Part shown: positions 701 to 11,316 of the stretch, piece after piece | Layout of the letters: each line of letters begins with the position of its first letter | Numbering within the stretch: position 1 is the first letter of the stretch | From: Planctomycetota bacterium | GTDB lineage: Bacteria > Planctomycetota > UBA8108 > SXIK01 | DNA length: 64,000 nt | Assembly: GCA_965223845.1 (NCBI GenBank) | Contig: CBDCXR010000004.1 | Span: forward strand, 352,001 to 416,000 | Direction: 5' to 3' | The notes under the pieces: model-generated | The model's database searches: none | What the model was told of the DNA's origin: nothing | What the model saw: only the letters and a program-made list of their open reading frames with translations | Program-made: the position numbers and the translations under genes

Positions 701-816
701 CGGATGGGCTCGTTCGCCCTACCTTTGTGGACGGCTCGGGTACACTGGAAGCTCGTCGATGGCCGAGGATCTCTCGTTGCCGTTTCGGCTCAACATCGGA
801 AGGTGGATCGTCCGGG

Positions 817-3800
817 ATGACGGAACAGAAGTCGAGAGCACGATTCCTTCTTGCGGGGATTGCGCTCGTGGCCGCTGCAGTCGCGATCGTTGTCGTCTTC
901 GATCGAGGCCGACGAGAGGAGAGGACTCCCCCGGTCGAACTCGCCGAAGGCGACGATTCGGCTCCGCCGGCAGAATCCGAGAAGGACGGCGATCGGCTCG
1001 AATTCCGCAGCGCGGACGAGGCGCGCGCGTTTGTCGCGCGTGCGAAGTCGTCGCTCGCCCGTCAACCGGGCGATGCGCGCCTTCACCGACAGCTCGGAAC
1101 GGCCCTGAGCGCGCTCGGTGAGCGAGACGACGCGCTCGCTCACTACGGCCGAGCCGTAGAGCTCGCGCCGAGCGACGCCGAAGCGCAGAACGATTTCGCC
1201 GTACTTCTGGCCGCGAGCGGGCAGATCGAGCGGGCCATGGCGCACTTTCGCGCGGCGATCCGCGTCGACCCCGATCACGCCGAGAGTCGAGTCAATCTCG
1301 GGAATACGCTCGTCGTTCAGAGAAAGTTTGCGGAGGCGATCCCGCACTTTCGCCGTGCGATCGCAGTGCGGCCGGACTACGCGAAGGCGCACAACAACCT
1401 CGCCGTCGCTCTCAAGGAAACGGGGAGTATCGACGAGGCGCACGTCCACCTTCGTGAGGCGATGCGTTTCCGTCGCGAGCAGGCGGCGTCGACGTCTCGC
1501 GACTCTCCGGCCGTCGCGGAGAGACGAGAGGGCGCCGAAGATTCCGCGGATTCGCGAAGAGCAGCGGAGCGCGACGCCGAGGGTGTCGCGGCGATGACGA
1601 CGCGACGCATCGAGTCGGAGCGAGCGTCGGCCGCGACCGCTCTCGATCCGAGCTCCGACGGCTGGGAGTCGGAAGCGGTCGCCGAAACGGCGAAAGCGCG
1701 GCTCGAGCGACTCGCCGCACTCCTCTCGGGTCCGGGACCGATCGACCCGACGAGCTTCGACGGCCTCGTCTCCGCCGATCCCGAGTCGACGGAGTTCGAC
1801 GGGAAACTCGAGGAGGCGTACCGCGACGCGGTCCTCACCGTGCGCCGTCGAGCGGCGCCCGTCACGAAAGAGGATCGGGTGAACCGAGGGCGCGCATCGC
1901 TCGCGAAAGCACTCGAAACGCTCGCGGCGCCGCTCCGTGGAGCGAGCGATGTCGAAACGCACGTAAAGATCGTCCGCGTCGATCTCGCCGGCGATTCCGT
2001 CGCTACCCTCGCGTACTTCGACGCGAGTGGTCGTACGGGCGCGGGTGCAGTCGGAGTTCGCGATGTATGGCGATGCCGCTGGGCGCGAGAGAACGGTGAG
2101 CTGCTTCTCGATTCTCTGAGTTCGGACGACTACGAACGGATCGACGCTCGCGGATCCCGGTGGTTCACCGACTGTACGGCGGCGGTTCTCGGAGCGAACG
2201 ACTCGTTCGAGCGCCAGCTCGTTCCCGGACTCAACCACTGGCTCGCCCGCATCGAGCGGGTCCACAGCATGCACGTCTTCGCGCGTTACGGACTCGCGGT
2301 CGGCGACGTCAACGGCGACGATCTCGACGATGTCTACGTGTGTCAGCCGGGCGGTCTCCCGAATCGGCTCTACGTGCAGAACGCGGACGGGACGGCGAGC
2401 GACACCTCCGCGGCCGCCGGGGTCGACTGGCTCGACCACACGAGCAGCGCGCTCCTCGTCGATCTCGACGGTGATGGCGATCAGGATCTCGTCGCGGCGA
2501 CGATCTTCGGACTCATCCTCATGGCGAATGACGGGCGGGGCTCGTTCGCTCGTCGCGCGGTTCTTGCGCCGCGCGACATCGATCTCCACTCTCTGAGCGC
2601 CGCGGATTACGACGGCGACGGAGACCTCGACCTCTACATCTGTACGGACTTCGCGCAGGAAGTCGCACGCCCCGGGGCAGGAACGGGATTCGTTTACCAC
2701 GACGCGAACGATGGCGGAGCGAATCTTCTCTTTCGAAACGACATCGCGTCGAGCGAGGACGGGGCGTCGGTCGAGGGTGGGGCGACTTGGTCGTTTACCG
2801 ACGTCACGAAGGACGTCGGGCTCGACGTCGACAACCGCCGGCACAGCCTCGCGGCGGCGTGGGAGGACTACGACAATGACGGCGATCCCGACCTCTACGT
2901 CGCGAACGACTACGGTCAAAACTGCCTCTACCGAAACGACGGCGGACGCTTCGTGAACGTCGCTCGCCAGGCGGGCGTCGTCGATTTCGGCTCGGGAATG
3001 TCGGTGAGCTGGGCCGACTTCAACCGCGACGGTCGCTTGGATATCTACGTCGGGAACATGTTCTCCTCGGCGGGAAATCGCATCACGCGCCAGCTCGGCT
3101 TCAAACCCGGCGTGAACGAGACGACGCGCGAACTCTACCGCCGTTTCGCGAAGGGAAACTCCCTCTTCGAGAACATTGGCGGCGGCACGTTCCGCGAGGT
3201 GGGCGCGGAAGCGGGCGTCGAGATGGGGCGCTGGGCGTGGAGCTCCGTGTTCGCGGACATCAACAGCGACGGCTGGGACGATCTCCTCGTCGCGAACGGC
3301 TACATCACGACGGAAGACACCGGCGACTTGTGAAGCTTTTTCTGGCGACAGGTCGTGTCGCACGGACGAGTCGCAGTGAGGGACGTGCCGTCGAGCGGGG
3401 GCGCGGCGACCGCCGGCACTCGGCTCCACGATTTCATCCGGCGGGGACGCTCCTTTAGTGGTCGAGAGCGAAACTGCTGCTTTCTCAATACGGGGCGCGC
3501 CGCGCGCCGGTTCGCGGATGTCTCCACCGTGAGCGGGTTCGACTTCGCCGACGACGCCCGTGCGATCGCGCGCGTCGATTGGGATCACGACGGCGACCTA
3601 GACTTTTGGGTCGCGAACCGAAGCGGGCCGCAAGTGCGCTTTCTCCGCAACGATGTTCCTCGTGCCGGTCGATCGATCTCGCTCGCTCTAGTCGGCACTC
3701 GCTCGAATCGCGACGCGATCGGAGCGCGCGTCGAGATGGTCTTCGCAAATGAGGCGCATCCGAAGCTCGTCCGCTCGCTCCGCGCGGGAGACGGCTTTCT

Positions 3801-5103
3801 CGCGCAGTCGACCAAGTGGCTTCACTTCGGGCTCGGGGAGGCGACCGAGATCGAACGCGTCACGGTGCGGTGGCCGAACGGTGAGGAGGAGGACTTCCGT
3901 GACGTCCGCGCGGGCGGACGCTTCCGTTTGGTGGAAGGACGCGGCGTCGCCGAAGCGTCGCCGAAGCGTCAGCCAGGCGTGCGGCTTGTCGAGACTCCGC
4001 CTCGCGAGTTCACCTCTCGTGAGCCGCGGCGCGTCGTCTCGCGAGCGCGGCTTCCTGTACCCATACTCGAGTACGACGACTTTGACGGCGAGCCGCGATC
4101 GGTGTTTCGCGCCGCCGATGAGGACGCGACCGGCGCGACCGAACCCCGCGCGATGCTTCTCGTTCTGTGGGCGAGCTGGTGCCCGCCGTGCATCCTCGAG
4201 CTCCGCGAGATCGCCGAACGCGCGGGAGATCTTCGCGCAGCCGGTCTCGACGTCGTCGCGCTCTCGGTCGACGGGCTCGCGGAGAAGCCGGGACGCTCGC
4301 CGGCGGAGCTTAGTGACATCATCGCGCAGACCGAGTTTCCGTTCGCAGCGGGCCTCGCTCGCGAGCGCACGCTCGAACGCCTCGAGCGCGTTCACGATCG
4401 ACTCTTCGATCTTCGTCGGCGATTCCCCGTTCCCGTGAGCTTCCTCATCGACGGACGAGGCGAGCTCCTTACGATCTATCGCGGTCGTCTCGGAGTCGAC
4501 GCGCTCCTTCACGACGTGGAGCGGGCGAAGACGCGTACGCTTCGCGCGAGTGCACTCCCGTTCTCGGGTCGGTGGCTGCGCGAACCTGGGCGCTTGAGTC
4601 CCTTCACACTCGTCTGGGAGCTGCTCGCAGGCGGCGACGCACATGCCGGAATCCGGTACTTCGCGAAGCACCACGATCTCCTCCGCGCGCACGTCCGATT
4701 TCCGCAGCTCGCCGTGCTCGCGGGAAACGCACGGCTCTCGCGCGGAGACGTCCGAGCGGCGATGGCGCTCTACCGCGAAGCCATCGCGCGCGACGCGGAA
4801 TACGTCGATGCGCAGAACAACCTCGCGTGGGTGCTCGCGACCCACGCGGAAGACGGCGTCCGCGACGGTGCCGAGGCGGTGCGACTCGCGCAGTCGGCGC
4901 TCCAGAAGTCAGAGGGCAGGTTGACTTCGGTGTGGAACACCCTCGCCGCCGCGCTCGCAGAGGCGGGAGACTTCCCGCGGGCGATCGAAGTGGCCGAGCG
5001 AGCCCTCGAGCTCGCGCGCGACCGCGAGCAGGGCGAGCTCGCCGAAACGATCGAGCGCCGGCTCGCGCTCTACCGAAACCATCTCCCGTACAGATCCCGG
5101 TGA
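817..5103 (+). CDS. TPR + FG-GAP/VCBS beta-propeller + ASPIC/UnbV + thioredoxin-like (CxxC) + TPR protein (CRTAC1-like), read through an in-frame TGA at 3331-3333; candidate selenoprotein
   Basis: ORFs 727..3333 and 3355..5103 share a frame with only one TGA between them: ...GYITTEDTGDL*SFFWRQVVSHGR... N-terminal TM helix and TPRs. FG-GAP repeats (GDVNGDDLDD, DLDGDGDQD, DYDNDGDPD) continue after the TGA (DWDHDGDLD). ASPIC/UnbV (SNRDAIGARV...LHFGLG), WASWCPPC, C-terminal TPRs. If not read through, these are two genes (817..3333, 3355..5103). Confidence 0.75.
3331..3366 (+). promoter_or_regulatory. Putative bacterial SECIS element directly 3' of the in-frame UGA
   Basis: TGA, then an 11-nt spacer (AGCTTTTTCTG), then a perfect 6-bp stem GCGACA/TGTCGC (3345-3350/3356-3361) closing the loop GGTCG. 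The stem extends through TCTG/CGGA with one bulged A. The apical CAGGTC matches the E. coli fdhF SECIS top (GCAGGUCUGC). Confidence 0.7.
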
Positions 5104-5213: not shown

Positions 5214-6779
5214 ATGCGTCGTTCTGCCGCCGTCGTCTTCGCGTCCGTTCTCGTTTTCTCCGCGGCGGGAATCGTCTCCGCGGACATCATCGCGCCGACG
5301 GAGGTTCGGGCGACGAGCCAGTTCGGGCTCGGGGTGATCGTCGTCGACAGTCTGATCGACGGCTCGGGACTCGACGGAGCCGGTCCGATCGCGTCTCAGC
5401 TCCACGACAACGACGACGACAACATGTGGTTCTCGGGCTGCGAAGATGCCGGGATCGCAGGAGGGACTCCGGCGGAGTGTCCGACCGGGTTCGAGGTCCC
5501 GCCCGTAGACGAGCAGATCGTCGAGTTCGTCTTCGACACCGCGTACGACCTCGGCTCGGCGCTCGTGTGGCAGTACAACGAGTTCAACGACACGGTCGGA
5601 CCGCTTGCCGAACGCGGCGTGAAGCGTCTCGAGATGCTCGTCTCGCCGAGCCTGGAGGGCGAGTTTACGGCCATCGGCGAGTTCGAGCTCGCGCTGGCGT
5701 CGCCGGGGGACGAGGCCGGCGCGTTCACCGCGCCCGTCCAGAGTCTCGACGTCTGCGATCTCCCCGCGACGGACAGCGTGCGTCGCGTGCGCTTCCATCT
5801 CCTCGAAGCGCACAGCGGCGGCGAGGCGGACTACGTCGGCCTCTCTGAGGTGCGCTTCGAAGGCGTGGAGGCGGCGAACGTCGAGCTCATCACTCCGTCG
5901 GGAATCACCGGGACGAGTCAGTTCGGACTCGGCATCGTGACCGACAACTTGATCAACGGCTCTGGGCTCGATGGCGAAGGAGCCGTCGAGGATCAGCTGC
6001 ACACGAACGACAACGCGACGATGTGGTTCAGCGGGTGCGAGGATGCCGGCCTCCCGGGGGGAACGCCGCCCGAGTGTCCCACCGGCTTCGAGGTGGCTCC
6101 GGTCGACGAGCAGGTCGTCGAGTTCGAGTTCGACGGGAGCTACGATCTCAGCTCGGCACTCGTGTGGCAGTACAACGAACGCTCGGGAATCGGGCCGCTT
6201 CCGGGGCGCGGAGTAAGGACCTTCGAAATGCTCGCTTCGCCGAATCTCACCGACGATTTCGTTTCGCTCGGGACGTACGAGCTTGCGGTGGCGAGTCCAG
6301 CGGCAGAGCTCGGGGTGTTCTCCGAGCCGGCGCAAAAGATCGGCATTTGCGGACCGGAGTCGACCGGGGTCCAGCGCGTCCGCTTCCGCATCCTCGAGGC
6401 TCACAGCGGCGAAGCGATGGACTACGTCGGGCTTTCCGAAGTGCGCTTTCAAGGGACACCGCTCATTCCCTCGGTCGGTCAGCTCGCGGGCGATGCCAAC
6501 CAAGACGGCGACGTGAATGTGAGCGACATCATCACCGGGATCAAGCTCCTCTTCCCGACGTTCTTCCTACTCGATCGGAGTCCGGCATCACCGCCGTGCG
6601 CCACGGACGCCGGCAATGTCGCCGTGCTCGACGTGAACGGGGATGCCGCTCTCAGCGCGGCTGATCTCCTTTACTTGGCGCAGTACCTCTTCGGTGGGGG
6701 ACCCGCACCGGTCGGCGGTGTGTGCATCCGGGTTCCCGAGGCGGACTGTGACGAGAACGCTGCCTGCAGCGGTGGGTAG
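5214..6779 (+). CDS. Secreted protein with two tandem discoidin/galactose-binding-like (DUF4457-like) domains and a C-terminal dockerin
   Basis: GGAGG RBS at 5200-5204, ATG at 5214, signal peptide MRRSAAVVFASVLVFSAAGIVSA. A ~195-aa unit occurs twice (TSQFGLG...MWFSGCEDAG...ALVWQYNE...YVGLSEVRF). Dockerin: GDANQDGDVNVSD...DVNGDAALSAAD. Confidence 0.8.
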   Translation: MRRSAAVVFASVLVFSAAGIVSADIIAPTEVRATSQFGLGVIVVDSLIDGSGLDGAGPIASQLHDNDDDNMWFSGCEDAGIAGGTPAECPTGFEVPPVDEQIVEFVFDTAYDLGSALVWQYNEFNDTVGPLAERGVKRLEMLVSPSLEGEFTAIGEFELALASPGDEAGAFTAPVQSLDVCDLPATDSVRRVRFHLLEAHSGGEADYVGLSEVRFEGVEAANVELITPSGITGTSQFGLGIVTDNLINGSGLDGEGAVEDQLHTNDNATMWFSGCEDAGLPGGTPPECPTGFEVAPVDEQVVEFEFDGSYDLSSALVWQYNERSGIGPLPGRGVRTFEMLASPNLTDDFVSLGTYELAVASPAAELGVFSEPAQKIGICGPESTGVQRVRFRILEAHSGEAMDYVGLSEVRFQGTPLIPSVGQLAGDANQDGDVNVSDIITGIKLLFPTFFLLDRSPASPPCATDAGNVAVLDVNGDAALSAADLLYLAQYLFGGGPAPVGGVCIRVPEADCDENAACSGG

Positions 6780-8214
6780 ATTGCGCTCACTCGCGCGTTC
6801 GGCTCGGATTGGCGAGCTCACCGGTGGGATCCGCGCCCTCCTTCTTCTCCTTTCCGCGTTCGTGTTTAGTGCGCGACTCGGCGCGGCGGAGCGACCGCAT
6901 ATCGTCGTTTTCATCTCGGACGATCTCGGCCGGCTCGAGACCTCGGTCTACGGATCGAAGGACGCGAAGACGCCGAATCTCGACCGCGTCGCCTCGGCCG
7001 GAATGACGTTTGAGAGCGCGTACGTCGCTTCGCCCTCGTGCTGTCCGAATCGATATTCGCTTCTCACGGGACTGATGCCGTCGCGGCACGGAGCGCATCC
7101 GAATCACAGCCGCGTGAAGCCGGGGACGAAGTTCCTTCCGCCGTTCCTCAAGTCGCTCGGTTACACGATCGCATCCTTCGGGAAGATCGCTCATCGCCGG
7201 AGCTCGTTTCCGGGCTGCGATTTCAACTCGCCGCGACCGCGTGATCTGTCCGTGAACGTGCGGGACTGGTTCCGCTCAAAGCCGGAGGGGCCGATCTGCC
7301 TCCTCGTCGGAGATCGCCGTCCGCACGTATTGTGGACTAGCGAGTCGATCTACGACCCAAACGCGGTCCGATTGCCTCCCGACTTCATCGACACTCCCGA
7401 GACGCGCGAGCACTGGGCGCGCTACCTGACGGAGATCTCGGGCATGGACGGAGAGATCGGACGCATACTCGCCCTCGCGTCGGAGAACCTCGGCAAGAAC
7501 TTCATCTTTCTCTTCACCAGTGATCACGGCGGGCAGTGGCCGCGCGCGAAGTGGAATCTGTACGACTCCGGGACGCGGATCCCGCTCATCGTCTCCTGGC
7601 CGGGGCGAATCGCCGCCGGCGTTCGGACGAACGCGTTCGTGAGCTGGGTGGATCTCGTGCCGACGCTCCTCGATCTCGCCGGCGGTGAGGTTCCGAAAGA
7701 GATCGACGGTCGCTCGTTCGCCGCCGTTCTCCTCGGGACCGCGACGTCGCATCGTGAACGGATCTTCACAACCCACACGGGCGATGGTGTGATGAATGTC
7801 TTTCCGATGCGAAGCGTGCGCGTAGCCAATTGGAAGTACATTCTCAACCTGCGGCCGGACGCTTGGCACACCACTCACTCGGATCGCTTGCGACGCGATG
7901 GCTCCGGTGCGTTCTGGAACTCGTGGGACGAAGCAGCGAAGACGGATGCCCGAGCAGCATCGATCATCCGGCGCTACCGTACGCGCGCGCGGGAGGAGCT
8001 GTTCGACTTGTCGCGCGACCCGTTCGAGCTCACGAACCTCGCCGCGGATCCGAAGCACCGCGACCGTTTGGCCTCGCTCCGAATGGCGCTCTCGAGCTGG
8101 ACGACGGCGCAGGGCGACTCGCTCGAGCCGCACCGTGATCCCTACCTCCGCTCGAAGCCGATCCCCGACCTGCGACGCGAGCGAGAGCGTTCGAAGCGCG
8201 AGGCGGGACGATAG
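6772..8214 (+). CDS. Sulfatase (Cys-type, formylglycine-dependent)
   Basis: PHIVVFISDDLG, CxPxR motif (SCCPNRYSLLTG), GKIAH, FTSDHG, ELFDLSRDPFELTNLA. Start codon uncertain. Confidence 0.9.
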   Translation: MGRLRSLARSARIGELTGGIRALLLLLSAFVFSARLGAAERPHIVVFISDDLGRLETSVYGSKDAKTPNLDRVASAGMTFESAYVASPSCCPNRYSLLTGLMPSRHGAHPNHSRVKPGTKFLPPFLKSLGYTIASFGKIAHRRSSFPGCDFNSPRPRDLSVNVRDWFRSKPEGPICLLVGDRRPHVLWTSESIYDPNAVRLPPDFIDTPETREHWARYLTEISGMDGEIGRILALASENLGKNFIFLFTSDHGGQWPRAKWNLYDSGTRIPLIVSWPGRIAAGVRTNAFVSWVDLVPTLLDLAGGEVPKEIDGRSFAAVLLGTATSHRERIFTTHTGDGVMNVFPMRSVRVANWKYILNLRPDAWHTTHSDRLRRDGSGAFWNSWDEAAKTDARAASIIRRYRTRAREELFDLSRDPFELTNLAADPKHRDRLASLRMALSSWTTAQGDSLEPHRDPYLRSKPIPDLRRERERSKREAGR

Positions 8215-8901: not shown

Positions 8902-10017
8902 ATGCGACGCTTCTACCTCCTCGCGTGTCTCGCGGGTGGTTTGATCGGAACCGCTTCCGAGGTCGAGTCGTCCCGCTCCGATTCGGTTCCCGCGCTTGCG
9001 CTCGCGCATTCAGAACCGGTGCAGGCGGCGCTGTTCAGCCCGGACGGGAAGCGCATCGCCACCGCGGCGAAGAGCGGCGCGGTGCGTATTTGGGATGTCG
9101 CGAGCGGTGAGCGGCTCGAGACCATGGCCGGGAGCTCCCACGGAAAGGCGAGTCGCGACCCGCTCCTCGGGATCGCCTACCGGCCCGATGGCACGCGGAT
9201 CGCCGGACGCTCTGAGGACGAGCACGTCTACGTCTGGAACCCGGTGAACGGCGAGTCGATCGTATCGATCTGCGGCCGCAAGTGGAGCTTCGCCATCGCG
9301 ACGTTCAGTCCGGACGGACGCCACCTCCTCACGGTCGAATACGGTCGAGCGGAGATCTACGACGCCGCGAACGGAAAACACGTCGGCGCGCTTCAGAGCG
9401 GCGACGACGACTGGGTCGAGACGGCGCACTACAGTGCGGATGGCCGACGCATCGTCACCGTTACGAAACGGGGGATCGTGACCGTCCGGGAGGCGAAGGG
9501 GCGTGAGGTCGTTCGCGTGCTGGAAACGTCGAAGCCGAATGCGGATTTCGCTCGACTCGATCGGAAGGGAAAGCGCGTCGTCACGCTCGCCGGCGACCGC
9601 TGGGCCCGAGTGTGGGACGTTGCGAACGGAATCGAGCTCTACTCCGTGCCGATCGGAAAGCGGGGCGTGCAGGGGGCGCGTGTCGCGCGGTTTGGCCCGG
9701 ATGGCAGTGTTCTCGTCACGGCGGTGCGTCAATCCAGCGCGCGAATCTGGGACGCTGCGACCGGGAAGCGGATCGCGACGCTCACGGGTCACGAGAAACC
9801 GATTCGCTCGGTCGCGATCAGTCCGGATGGACGACGAATCACGACCGCGTCGACCGAAGACTCCGCCCGACTGTGGGACGCGAAGACGGGGCGACTTCTG
9901 CGCCTCTTCGAGCACAAGGACAGCGTCTACACGGCGGTGTTCAGTCCGGACGGCAAGCGAGTACTTACGGCTTCGAAGGACGGCGCGGCTTGCGTCTGGG
10001 ACGTTTCCGCGGAGTAG
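8902..10017 (+). CDS. Secreted WD40-repeat protein
   Basis: Signal peptide; repeated FSPDG...IWD motifs (GHEKPIRSVAISPDG...ARLWD). Confidence 0.9.
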   Translation: MRRFYLLACLAGGLIGTASEVESSRSDSVPALALAHSEPVQAALFSPDGKRIATAAKSGAVRIWDVASGERLETMAGSSHGKASRDPLLGIAYRPDGTRIAGRSEDEHVYVWNPVNGESIVSICGRKWSFAIATFSPDGRHLLTVEYGRAEIYDAANGKHVGALQSGDDDWVETAHYSADGRRIVTVTKRGIVTVREAKGREVVRVLETSKPNADFARLDRKGKRVVTLAGDRWARVWDVANGIELYSVPIGKRGVQGARVARFGPDGSVLVTAVRQSSARIWDAATGKRIATLTGHEKPIRSVAISPDGRRITTASTEDSARLWDAKTGRLLRLFEHKDSVYTAVFSPDGKRVLTASKDGAACVWDVSAE

Positions 10018-10023
10018 TAGTTC

Positions 10024-11316
10024 ATGAATCCTTTTCGATCGGGCGTGCTTCCTCGTCTTGCCGCGTTCCTGCCTGCGACCCTCTTCGCGATCGCCCCGCT
10101 GTCCTCTGAAGAACTGGCGAGCTCGCCGGTCGAGCTTCGACGACTCGCGGAGCTCACCGGGATCTGGCGTGTCGAAGGTCGAGTCCGCGCGAGCGCCGAC
10201 CGTCCGTGGATCGAGGTCGCGGGCACTGCTCAGGCTGAGACGATTCGCGGCGGGCGTTTCATCGTCCGCACGTTGCAACTCGCGCCGGCGGGAGAGACGT
10301 CTCCGGCGATCGAGCGGTCGAGCCTCTTCGGTTTCGACGAGCGGGGCGACCGGCTACGCCGGCTCTCGACCGGTTACGGGCGCACCGCGGTGGTCGTCGA
10401 GGATGGAAAAGCAGACGGCGATCGCCTGATCTTCAGCGCCAGTGAGGCGTCTGCGGGCACCCCGGCGCGGCGCTCGGTCATCGAGCAGGCGGGGGCGGAG
10501 ACGCTCAAGGAGACGACGTATTCCGTCGGTTCGGGCGGAAGCGAGAGGCTCGTCGAGTCGCTCGCTCTCGTGCGCACGGAAAGTAAGGCTGCGATTCTCC
10601 CGCTCGTCGCGAGGAACTCGGCGGGGATGGAGCTCTGCCGCATCGATCCCGGGGAGTTCGTCATGGGGAGCGCCGAGTCGGAAAAGGGGCGCGAGGACGA
10701 CGAATCGCCGCAGCGCACCGTTCGGATCACGCGTGCGTTCTATCTCGGCGGCACGGAAGTGACCCAGGCGCAGTGGGCGGACGTCATGGAAACGCGGCCG
10801 TGGGAAGACAACAAGAACATCGAGAAGGGCGAAACATTGCCCGCGGTGCTGATTCGATGGAGCGACGCCGTTCAGTTCTGCCGCAAGCTCAGCGAGCGTG
10901 AAGGGAAAACGTATCGTCTTCCGACCGAAGCGGAGTGGGAATACGCCTGCCGCGCCGGCGCGGCGACGGAGTTCTACTGGGGCGTCGGCTTCGATCCCGA
11001 GTTTGCGTGGAGCAGCAAGAACGCGAAAGGCCTTCAGCCGGTCGCGACGCGGTGGCCGAATGCGCGCGGGCTCTTCGATATGGGCGGAAACGTCTGGGAG
11101 TGGTGCCGTGACTGGCACGGTCCGTATGACGCGGACGGCGGGGAAGATCCCGTCGGCCCGGCGAGCGGTGAGCGGCGCGTGATTCGGAGCGGCTCCTACA
11201 GCAATAGCATGTGGGACTGCCGATCGGGCGAGCGCGGTGCCGTGCCACCCGACGTTTCGTTTGGGGCGAGCGGGTTTCGCGTCCTTCTCGAGATTCCGAG
11301 CCCGAAGTCACGCTGA
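10024..11316 (+). CDS. DUF1579-like N-terminal domain fused to an FGE-sulfatase (SUMF1-like) domain
   Basis: Signal peptide; LTGIWRVEG...GGRFI N-domain; GEFVMGS, TEVTQAQW, YRLPTEAEWEYACRAG, GLFDMGGNVWEWC, GFRV. Confidence 0.85.
   Translation: MNPFRSGVLPRLAAFLPATLFAIAPLSSEELASSPVELRRLAELTGIWRVEGRVRASADRPWIEVAGTAQAETIRGGRFIVRTLQLAPAGETSPAIERSSLFGFDERGDRLRRLSTGYGRTAVVVEDGKADGDRLIFSASEASAGTPARRSVIEQAGAETLKETTYSVGSGGSERLVESLALVRTESKAAILPLVARNSAGMELCRIDPGEFVMGSAESEKGREDDESPQRTVRITRAFYLGGTEVTQAQWADVMETRPWEDNKNIEKGETLPAVLIRWSDAVQFCRKLSEREGKTYRLPTEAEWEYACRAGAATEFYWGVGFDPEFAWSSKNAKGLQPVATRWPNARGLFDMGGNVWEWCRDWHGPYDADGGEDPVGPASGERRVIRSGSYSNSMWDCRSGERGAVPPDVSFGASGFRVLLEIPSPKSR

Follow-up and report, generated by a model that had tools for sequence, protein, structure and literature searches.

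We analysed a gene on the forward strand of a 64,000-nucleotide (nt) stretch of DNA, here called the window, from a Planctomycetota bacterium (GenBank assembly GCA_965223845.1, contig CBDCXR010000004.1, positions 352,001 to 416,000). Two predicted open reading frames (ORFs) in the window are one gene and encode one protein: a TGA at 3331-3333 (+) links the two frames into a single gene, 817-5103, when TGA is translated as selenocysteine (Sec, U). The product is one long, probably membrane-anchored protein in which the UGA is almost certainly a Sec codon, and it is the first seen member of a widespread selenoprotein family. Comparison of sequences makes it very likely that the UGA is read as Sec through a selenocysteine insertion sequence (SECIS). 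The analysis showed a conserved in-frame UGA, a covarying hairpin, genomic Sec machinery, a single reading frame and a fold that spans the UGA, and from these we infer that selenium is inserted. An earlier interpretation of the DNA (the sequence-only reading) had proposed that this UGA encodes Sec, and the conserved UGA, the covarying hairpin and the Sec machinery of the genome bear the proposal out. The decoding mechanism is the classical one; what is unusual is the propeller fold, the lack of a Sec/Cys pair, the large number of paralogues within single genomes and a SECIS that coincides with the codons of a conserved peptide motif.

In the proposed mechanism, SelB and tRNA-Sec would decode the internal UGA at 3331-3333 as Sec under the direction of a 17-nt hairpin lying 11 nt further downstream, which would be formed by the codons of the conserved peptide W-R-Q-V-V-S. 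The predicted product of about 1430 residues would carry, in order, a membrane anchor, TPR repeats, a CRTAC1-like propeller with UnbV_ASPIC, a TlpA-like CxxC redoxin domain and further TPR repeats. Residue numbers are counted from GTG 727 unless stated; Sec is residue 869 in this count and residue 839 of 1428 when counted from ATG 817, a recount that agrees with the position first given for it. The features in the window are:

817-5103, forward strand: whole gene, 1428 codons from ATG 817, with an alternative upstream start at GTG 727; homologues align in one frame across the TGA.
844-900, forward strand: N-terminal hydrophobic stretch FLLAGIALVAAAVAIVVVF after a basic head, 19 hydrophobic residues, read from the sequence.
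1015-1479, forward strand: N-terminal TPR repeats (Pfam TPR_1, TPR_2, TPR_11 and others), residues ~97-251.
2137-4056, forward strand: CRTAC1-like FG-GAP beta-propeller plus UnbV_ASPIC, the modelled region, residues 471-1110 (Pfam FG-GAP_3, AlphaFold2, PDB match).
3331-3333, forward strand: UGA very probably read as Sec; the residue begins helix USFFWRQVV, part of a helical insert that separates two strands of a single propeller blade.
3345-3361, forward strand: SECIS-type hairpin of 6 bp (3345-3350 with 3356-3361), loop GGUCG at 3351-3355.
3475-3480, forward strand: Cys917-Cys918 (ERN-CC-FLN) at the start of the strand after the insert, a candidate resolving cysteine that is not universal in TGA forms.
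3715-3915, forward strand: UnbV_ASPIC domain (Pfam PF07593, 63 bits), residues 997-1063.
4147-4467, forward strand: TlpA/ResA-like thioredoxin-fold domain (AhpC/TSA; Pfam PF00578, 31.5 bits, cut-off 26), residues 1141-1247.
4180-4191, forward strand: Cys1152 and Cys1155 of the redoxin-domain motif WCPPC, residues 1151-1155.
4942-5031, forward strand: C-terminal TPR repeat region (Pfam TPR_7), residues 1406-1435.

The extended frame, 727-5103, contained a single internal stop, the TGA at 3331-3333, ahead of the terminal TGA at 5101-5103. ORF 817-3333 ends in this TGA and the same frame runs on downstream, as the sequence-only reading had described. The sequence around the codon is GAC TTG TGA AGC TTT TTC TGG CGA CAG GTC GTG TCG CAC. 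AlphaFold2 modelled residues 471-1110 as a single confident domain (predicted local distance difference test, pLDDT, 91; predicted template modelling score, pTM, 0.94), and the best Foldseek match of the model in the PDB was murine CRTAC1 (9etn_A, E 1.5e-27, template modelling score, TM, 0.72). The UGA lies inside one propeller blade: in model numbering, strand 382-387 (LLVANG) is followed by insert helices 399-407 and 422-435 and then by strand 447-451 (CCFLN), and Sec is model residue 399, at the start of helix 399-407. The 5920 full-length homologues (802-2554 aa) were single chains. The GTG at 3355, predicted as the start of the downstream ORF and correctly placed within the hairpin by the sequence-only reading, sits at the junction of the loop and the 3' arm. 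It is a conserved Val codon, present also in sense-codon homologues that are single chains.

Domain searches placed the protein among CRTAC1/ASPIC-UnbV proteins, with an FG-GAP propeller followed by an UnbV_ASPIC domain in both Pfam and Foldseek (PF13517, FG-GAP_3, 127 bits; PF01839, 76 bits; PF07593, 63 bits; FG-GAP_3 and UnbV_ASPIC above their cut-offs). The FG-GAP and ASPIC/UnbV domains named by the sequence-only reading were thus recovered by Pfam; the AhpC/TSA redoxin domain went unmentioned there, and TPR repeats were found as well. The redoxin domain is TlpA/ResA-like in having a thioredoxin fold with CxxC (PF00578, WCPPC). NCBIfam models of whole TlpA/ResA proteins gave weak matches far below their cut-offs, and the match is therefore at domain level only. 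The model for ResA-like WAxxUGC selenoproteins (NF041054) scored 29.5 bits against a cut-off of 300, and the motif here, WCPPC, has Cys.

The TGA was conserved across a large set of homologues. This genome held 8 paralogues with exactly one TGA in each match, and across 41 related genomes the best 85 matches, from 22 genomes, all contained one TGA. In a phylum sample of 401 evenly drawn genomes, 79 had a family match at E <= 1e-20; among the 150 matches listed, 132 had one TGA, 1 had two and 17 had none (133 with TGA). TGA occupied the identical aligned column in 29/29 loci, in 15/15 named loci and in 63/63 fetched regions flagged for TGA. Pooling gave 188 loci with a residue at the TGA column, from which we kept the 140 with Trp four codons downstream; the 48 excluded comprised distant FG-GAP proteins that lack the motif and one TGA form, L060, whose motif is divergent. 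TGA was present in 106 of the 140 motif-bearing loci and a sense codon in 34, and TAA or TAG in none. TGA forms reached down to about 35% identity and occurred in Acidobacteriota, Verrucomicrobiota and Planctomycetota. Named records with TGA came from Akkermansiaceae, Roseibacillus, Verrucomicrobiales/Verrucomicrobiota, Phycisphaerae/Planctomycetota and Pyrinomonadaceae, and named sense forms from Terriglobales, Acidobacteriaceae, Tunturiibacter, Sulfotelmatobacter and Bryobacterales. The closest named full-length proteins belonged to Candidatus Polarisedimenticolia, which would suggest Acidobacteriota as the phylum of the window (the assembly record gives Planctomycetota).

A private nonsense mutation, which the sequence-only reading had named as one way for its proposal to fail, is excluded by the same-column TGA in 106 homologues, and sequencing error is excluded because the TGA is conserved in homologues. 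The reads at 3331-3333 had also been suggested as a check. Contigs from 4 sequencing runs cover 3200-3500 with 0 differences; these runs represent 2 samples of 1 study, are possibly the source of the assembly, and do not amount to independent support. Several other contigs in the 4 metagenome runs shared only a 31-45-nt stretch with the window, at 3319-3362, comprising the TGA and hairpin with 1-2 differences, and summed word depth at 3319-3362 rose 7- to 20-fold, which fits a module carried by many paralogues or organisms. Tandem arrays of 4-5 TGA-form paralogues with a spacing of ~3.4-4.3 kb were seen in some genomes of the phylum, at G259:C253:28861-43874 and also on G316:C204, G330:C36 and G229:C19; the motif of the tandem-array clade is D-[W/Y]-U-T-F-F-W-R-Q-V-A-A-D.

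In E. coli fdhF, the minimal SECIS is a hairpin that spans 17 nt and begins 11 nt past the UGA; SelB binds the G and U of its GGUC loop. In the gene analysed here, 11 nt (3334-3344) separate the TGA from a stem with arms GCGACA (3345-3350) and TGTCGC (3356-3361) and loop GGTCG (3351-3355), exactly the stem, loop and spacing first noticed in the sequence. The 106 TGA forms were aligned over 45 nt without gaps, with the T of TGA as column 1 and columns 15-20 paired with columns 26-31. Standard pairs filled 92.3% of 624 cells compared to 84.3% in shuffles (0/500 as high), and slid partners gave 19-68%. Changes on both sides of a pair were found in 43 cells compared to 12.1 in shuffles (0/500). 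In pair 18:28 the wobble position of the Arg codon pairs with position 1 of the codon that follows Val-Val (GU 36, AU 25, CG 21, GC 6, UA 4, UG 1), and the residue after Val-Val varies (Ser, Pro, Ala, Thr) so as to keep this pair. Pair 20:26 was AU in 82 sequences and GC in 16, and the GC version requires Gln-to-Arg plus Val-to-Ala/Thr. All 6 pairs were in register in 90/104 distinct TGA sequences, and each of the 11 TGA forms with fewer than 5 pairs had an alternative, uninterrupted stem of 5-10 bp with its start at positions 10-18. In the loop, G22 was invariant and U23 was kept in at least 90% of TGA forms. The hairpin therefore has the marks of a bacterial SECIS, namely a downstream stem-loop, a conserved apical-loop G and maintenance by covariation. 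A covarying hairpin beside a conserved TGA was among the results that the sequence-only reading had named as support for its proposal.

Pairing was lower in sense forms that encode the same S-F-F-W-R-Q-V-V peptide: 58.6% of cells were paired (n=33, the 34 sense forms less L102, which has an unrelated motif), and 6/6 pairs occurred in only 2/34. One of these two, L189 (G383:C104:12750-13340), had GAG (Glu) at the site together with a full 6-bp hairpin. A TGA paralogue (G383:C104:8952-9536) lies ~3 kb away, and L189 appears to have lost Sec recently.

The host genome (7.93 Mb, 4 contigs, 92% complete) contained all four components of the Sec machinery that the sequence-only reading had proposed to look for: tRNA-Sec (68.1 bits, gathering score 47; called SeC with anticodon tca by ARAGORN), selA (536 bits), selB (320 bits, and in the same frame a piece of its C-terminus) and selD (308 bits). 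The selA, selB and selD genes were long frames without internal TGA, and stop-to-stop frames of at least 400 codons in the window ended in TGA 16 times, in TAG 16 times and in TAA 9 times (a rough tally with antisense frames included). Hence TGA has not been reassigned in general, in keeping with the initial expectation. The genome has a second selenoprotein gene, which encodes an FdhA-like molybdopterin oxidoreductase (G000:C4:4984214-4984963, L229, reverse strand) with the site CSRA-U-HAP. The hairpin at its Sec site has a 6-bp stem and loop GGUCU at +22 to +26; the loop of the propeller gene, GGUCG, is at +21 to +25, so that the two geometries are nearly alike.

selA was present in 40/41 relatives and in 288/401 genomes of the phylum sample. 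Among the family-bearing genomes of the sample, 75/79 had selA (tables compared by eye) and 78/79 had selA or selB; three of the four without detected selA (G260, G359 and G360; 83, 67 and 84% complete) had selB above cut-off. We rejected the idea that sense forms occur only where the Sec trait was lost, since the 5 named sense-form genomes comprised 2 without selA and 3 with selA. All 17 sense paralogues retrieved from this sample of the phylum came from selA-positive genomes. At G423:C2:40345-41812, in a named Acidobacteriota metagenome-assembled genome with a sense form (L090, Glu), selA matches fell in three consecutive pieces in different open frames; this selA may be frameshifted and decaying.

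Several results weigh against Sec decoding. The sequence-only reading had pointed to TGA forms in Sec-negative genomes as a test of its proposal, and the finding that 78/79 family genomes have selA or selB agrees with it, but one genome, G258 (90% complete), has neither. G258 carries a TGA form (G258:C36:100077-101882, L232) with the sequence PDG-TGA-SCVWQAVVAQ and a 7-bp hairpin, yet no selA, selB or tRNA-Sec was detected in it, and its sole RF01852 match was a tRNA-Leu; the simplest reading is that the bin is incomplete. The fold of the single sequence was unremarkable (76-nt minimum free energy, z = -0.25 compared to shuffles), so that the significance of the hairpin comes from the comparison of homologues. 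Hairpin conservation is, in turn, partly protein-driven, because the hairpin overlaps strongly conserved codons. No Rfam family matched 3250-3450 at E values up to 10, and no RNA run containing the stretch was listed.

Other explanations of the TGA fare worse. Readthrough stimulated by the hairpin, with a near-cognate tRNA placing an ordinary amino acid (Trp, Cys or Arg) at the UGA, would account for the TGA form in G258 without detected Sec genes, and downstream hairpins are able to stimulate such readthrough. We regard it as very improbable: the position of the hairpin (nt 15-31 from the U of UGA), its size and its GU-containing loop match the FdhA-like Sec site of the same genome and the minimal SECIS of E. 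coli fdhF, selA or selB is present in nearly every family-bearing genome (78/79), and the codon is only TGA, never TAG or TAA. Still less probable is a true stop with re-initiation at GTG 3355 and two separate proteins. Gene callers do predict two ORFs and the GTG lies only 21 nt downstream, but the break would interrupt one blade of a domain that is modelled with confidence as a single unit, 106 genes share the same frame and spacing with the stop always TGA, the GTG is a conserved Val codon in single-chain sense homologues, and all 5920 full-length homologues are single chains. Least probable of all is a private nonsense mutation, pseudogene or sequencing error, which has nothing in its favour beyond the bare TGA and has against it the TGA in 106 genes of three phyla and contigs from 4 possibly source-related runs with 0 differences.

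The residue that replaces Sec was highly variable. Among the best 120 full-length homologues, the Sec-aligned residue was Ala in 39, Ser in 33, Gly in 13, Asn in 12, Glu in 6, Cys in 4, Asp in 4, Leu in 3, Tyr in 2, and Gln, Arg, Met and His in 1 each; the display of these homologues shows U as C, and the 4 Cys records may bear U. The flanks, D-L-x-S-F-F-W-R-Q-V-V, were strongly conserved in the same 120. In the phylum sample, the residue of the 17 sense paralogues found in selA-positive genomes was Glu in 7, Arg in 3, Asp in 2, Gln in 2, Ala in 2 and Asn in 1. The sequence-only reading had expected Cys or another sense codon in homologues without TGA. Other sense codons were indeed found, but Cys, the replacement that classically marks a selenoprotein family, was rare. 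Besides the Sec site, the sole column that separated the groups was residue 720 (window ~2884-2886), in a D-x-D-x-D-G loop of an earlier blade. This residue was Asp in 29/29 TGA forms; in 118 sense forms it was Trp in 67, Asp in 20 and Leu in 17.

TGA forms and sense forms also differed in the redoxin domain. In the tail alignment, C-x-x-C was present in 24/24 TGA forms with a redoxin domain compared to 21/112 sense forms, which otherwise carried SxxS (33), AxxS (12), SxxC (11), AxxC (8) and other motifs. In an independent named set, CxxC occurred in 10/11 TGA forms and 1/15 sense forms, which brings the pooled count of intact CxxC to 34/35 TGA forms compared to 22/127 sense forms. Cys917/918 was present in 24/24 TGA forms with a redoxin domain and in 0/5 short TGA forms without the domain. 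A FastTree tree of 179 sequences implied 11 changes of TGA/sense state and 14 changes of CxxC state.

We tentatively propose, at somewhat below even probability, that the protein is a periplasm-facing redox selenoenzyme whose reactive Sec is recycled by the CxxC domain. The proposal draws on the CxxC association, Cys917/918, the N-terminal hydrophobic stretch and the TlpA-type domain. Judged by its sequence, the stretch FLLAGIALVAAAVAIVVVF is probably a signal anchor, with the remainder of the protein facing the periplasm, and TlpA-type domains are typically extracytoplasmic. The N-terminus of a helix is a typical place for a reactive thiol or selenol. From these features we infer the periplasmic location, the redox chemistry and the relay to CxxC: Sec would act as the redox-active nucleophile, and the fused CxxC domain would regenerate it after oxidation, in many members perhaps by way of Cys917.

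A more elaborate version, which we consider rather unlikely, would make the CRTAC1-like propellers of Acidobacteriota, Verrucomicrobiota and Planctomycetota extracytoplasmic selenoenzymes with a three-point relay from Sec to Cys917 to CxxC. Sec would have arisen where no cysteine stood, since most of a SECIS was already present in the W-R-Q-V-V codons, and loss of the UGA would have let CxxC decay. If this were true, the abundant sense-codon homologues of Terriglobia would be catalytically dead relatives, and the Sec/Cys-pair rule would systematically hide such selenoprotein families.

Several results speak against a redox role. Cys was found at the site in 4/120 of the best homologues and in 0/34 sense loci read from DNA, and because Cys is nearly absent in homologues the Sec site is not a conserved catalytic position family-wide. 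Short TGA clades have no redoxin domain. Cys917 was rejected as an obligatory partner of Sec, as it is missing in many TGA forms, including some with CxxC (L076, L077, L099). The Sec-CxxC association is suggestive and is possibly tied to shared descent: the tree offered 4 supported independent pairs, of which ~2 changed in the same way, 0 in the opposite way and ~2 showed no difference (sign test p ~0.5). We therefore rejected a claim of statistical proof for joint loss of Sec and CxxC, the independent contrasts being too few.

Sec might also be inserted without being catalytic, either as a selenium-dependent gate on expression or as a near-neutral insertion at a tolerant surface position. Such an origin would have been eased since the W-R-Q-V-V codons encode most of the SECIS, and this explanation competes with the redox enzyme over function only, not over decoding. 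It would fit the variable site in sense forms (A, S, G, N, E, D, Q, R, Y), the codons found after TGA loss, which drift at least 2 steps from TGA (for example GAG, CAG and TAY), the 58.6% same-register pairing already present in sense forms, and the 11 TGA/sense changes implied by the tree. We hold it to be distinctly unlikely. TGA has been kept in 106 genes, some with identity as low as ~35%, and in as many as 8 paralogues of one genome, and one-step escapes to Gly, Ser, Arg, Cys or Leu should be tolerated were the residue unimportant. Intact CxxC accompanies TGA in 34/35 forms, and Sec is modelled at a helix N-terminus.

The redox selenoenzyme proposed here can be set beside several known systems. 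It shares with FdhA-type selenoproteins and the E. coli fdhF SECIS the UGA, the ~11-nt spacing, a short hairpin with G-U in the apical loop, and decoding by selA, selB, selC and selD; it differs in fold, in a hairpin encoded by W-R-Q-V-V-(S/P/A/T), and in having non-Cys homologues (Ala, Ser, Gly, Asn, Glu). CRTAC1/ASPIC-UnbV proteins (murine CRTAC1, 9etn) are the best structural match and share FG-GAP_3 and UnbV_ASPIC, whereas the Sec subfamily adds a ~60-residue helical insert with Sec, flanking TPR arrays and a fused redoxin domain; the literature searched yielded no report of Sec in CRTAC1/ASPIC-UnbV proteins. The likeness to TlpA/ResA proteins, including the WAxxUGC selenoproteins (NF041054), lies in a W-x-x-W-C-x-x-C redoxin domain and in the proposed thiol/selenol-disulfide exchange. 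Unlike in NF041054, the redoxin motif here has Cys at both positions (Cys-x-x-Cys), and Sec belongs to a different domain ~283 residues upstream. PMC4807772 describes, for example, an FmdB selenoprotein with non-Cys (Gly) homologues in Planctomycetes at the Sec site. FmdB resembles the propeller family in that Sec aligns with a non-Cys residue, but it is an unrelated protein, and the replacing residue is highly variable in the propeller family.

Published pipelines for selenoprotein prediction, as described in the main texts of PMC12013277 and PMC13188914, filter on Sec/Cys pairs, and because pipelines lean on such pairs the propeller family may be missing from the searched texts. The full-text literature search returned no FG-GAP, ASPIC, UnbV, TPR or propeller selenoprotein. 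Such a selenoprotein was likewise absent from the main-text portions consulted of PMC13188914, PMC12013277, PMC13326102, PMC2398784, PMC9312934, PMC4807772 and bioRxiv 10.1101/2022.07.06.499078; supplementary tables may list the family, for example PMC4807772 (S9 Table) and PMC12013277 (Table S2), as may BSepDB. As far as these searches of main-text literature go, this is a new selenoprotein family; the sequence-only reading had not known it as an established one either.

These results bear on how selenoproteins are found and counted. Gene callers split these genes into two ORFs, with 8 in this genome alone and tandem arrays in some relatives, and the family may make up a large, uncounted share of the selenoproteome and selenium demand of phyla that are common in soils and marine habitats. 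Sec/Cys pairs, the very criterion that published pipelines use as a filter, can be absent from a real selenoprotein family. A reactive Sec, if the proposed chemistry is right, beside a fused CxxC domain would provide a first testable lead to what bacterial CRTAC1/ASPIC-UnbV proteins do.

The neighbouring genes (a TPR protein, a dockerin-like protein, a sulfatase, a WD40 protein and an FGE-sulfatase) gave no functional clue. Downstream of the propeller gene, a row of genes encodes a sulfatase (6643-8214), a WD40 propeller protein (8902-10017) and a DUF1579 plus FGE-sulfatase protein (10024-11316). A frame with a dockerin-type domain ends at 6779.

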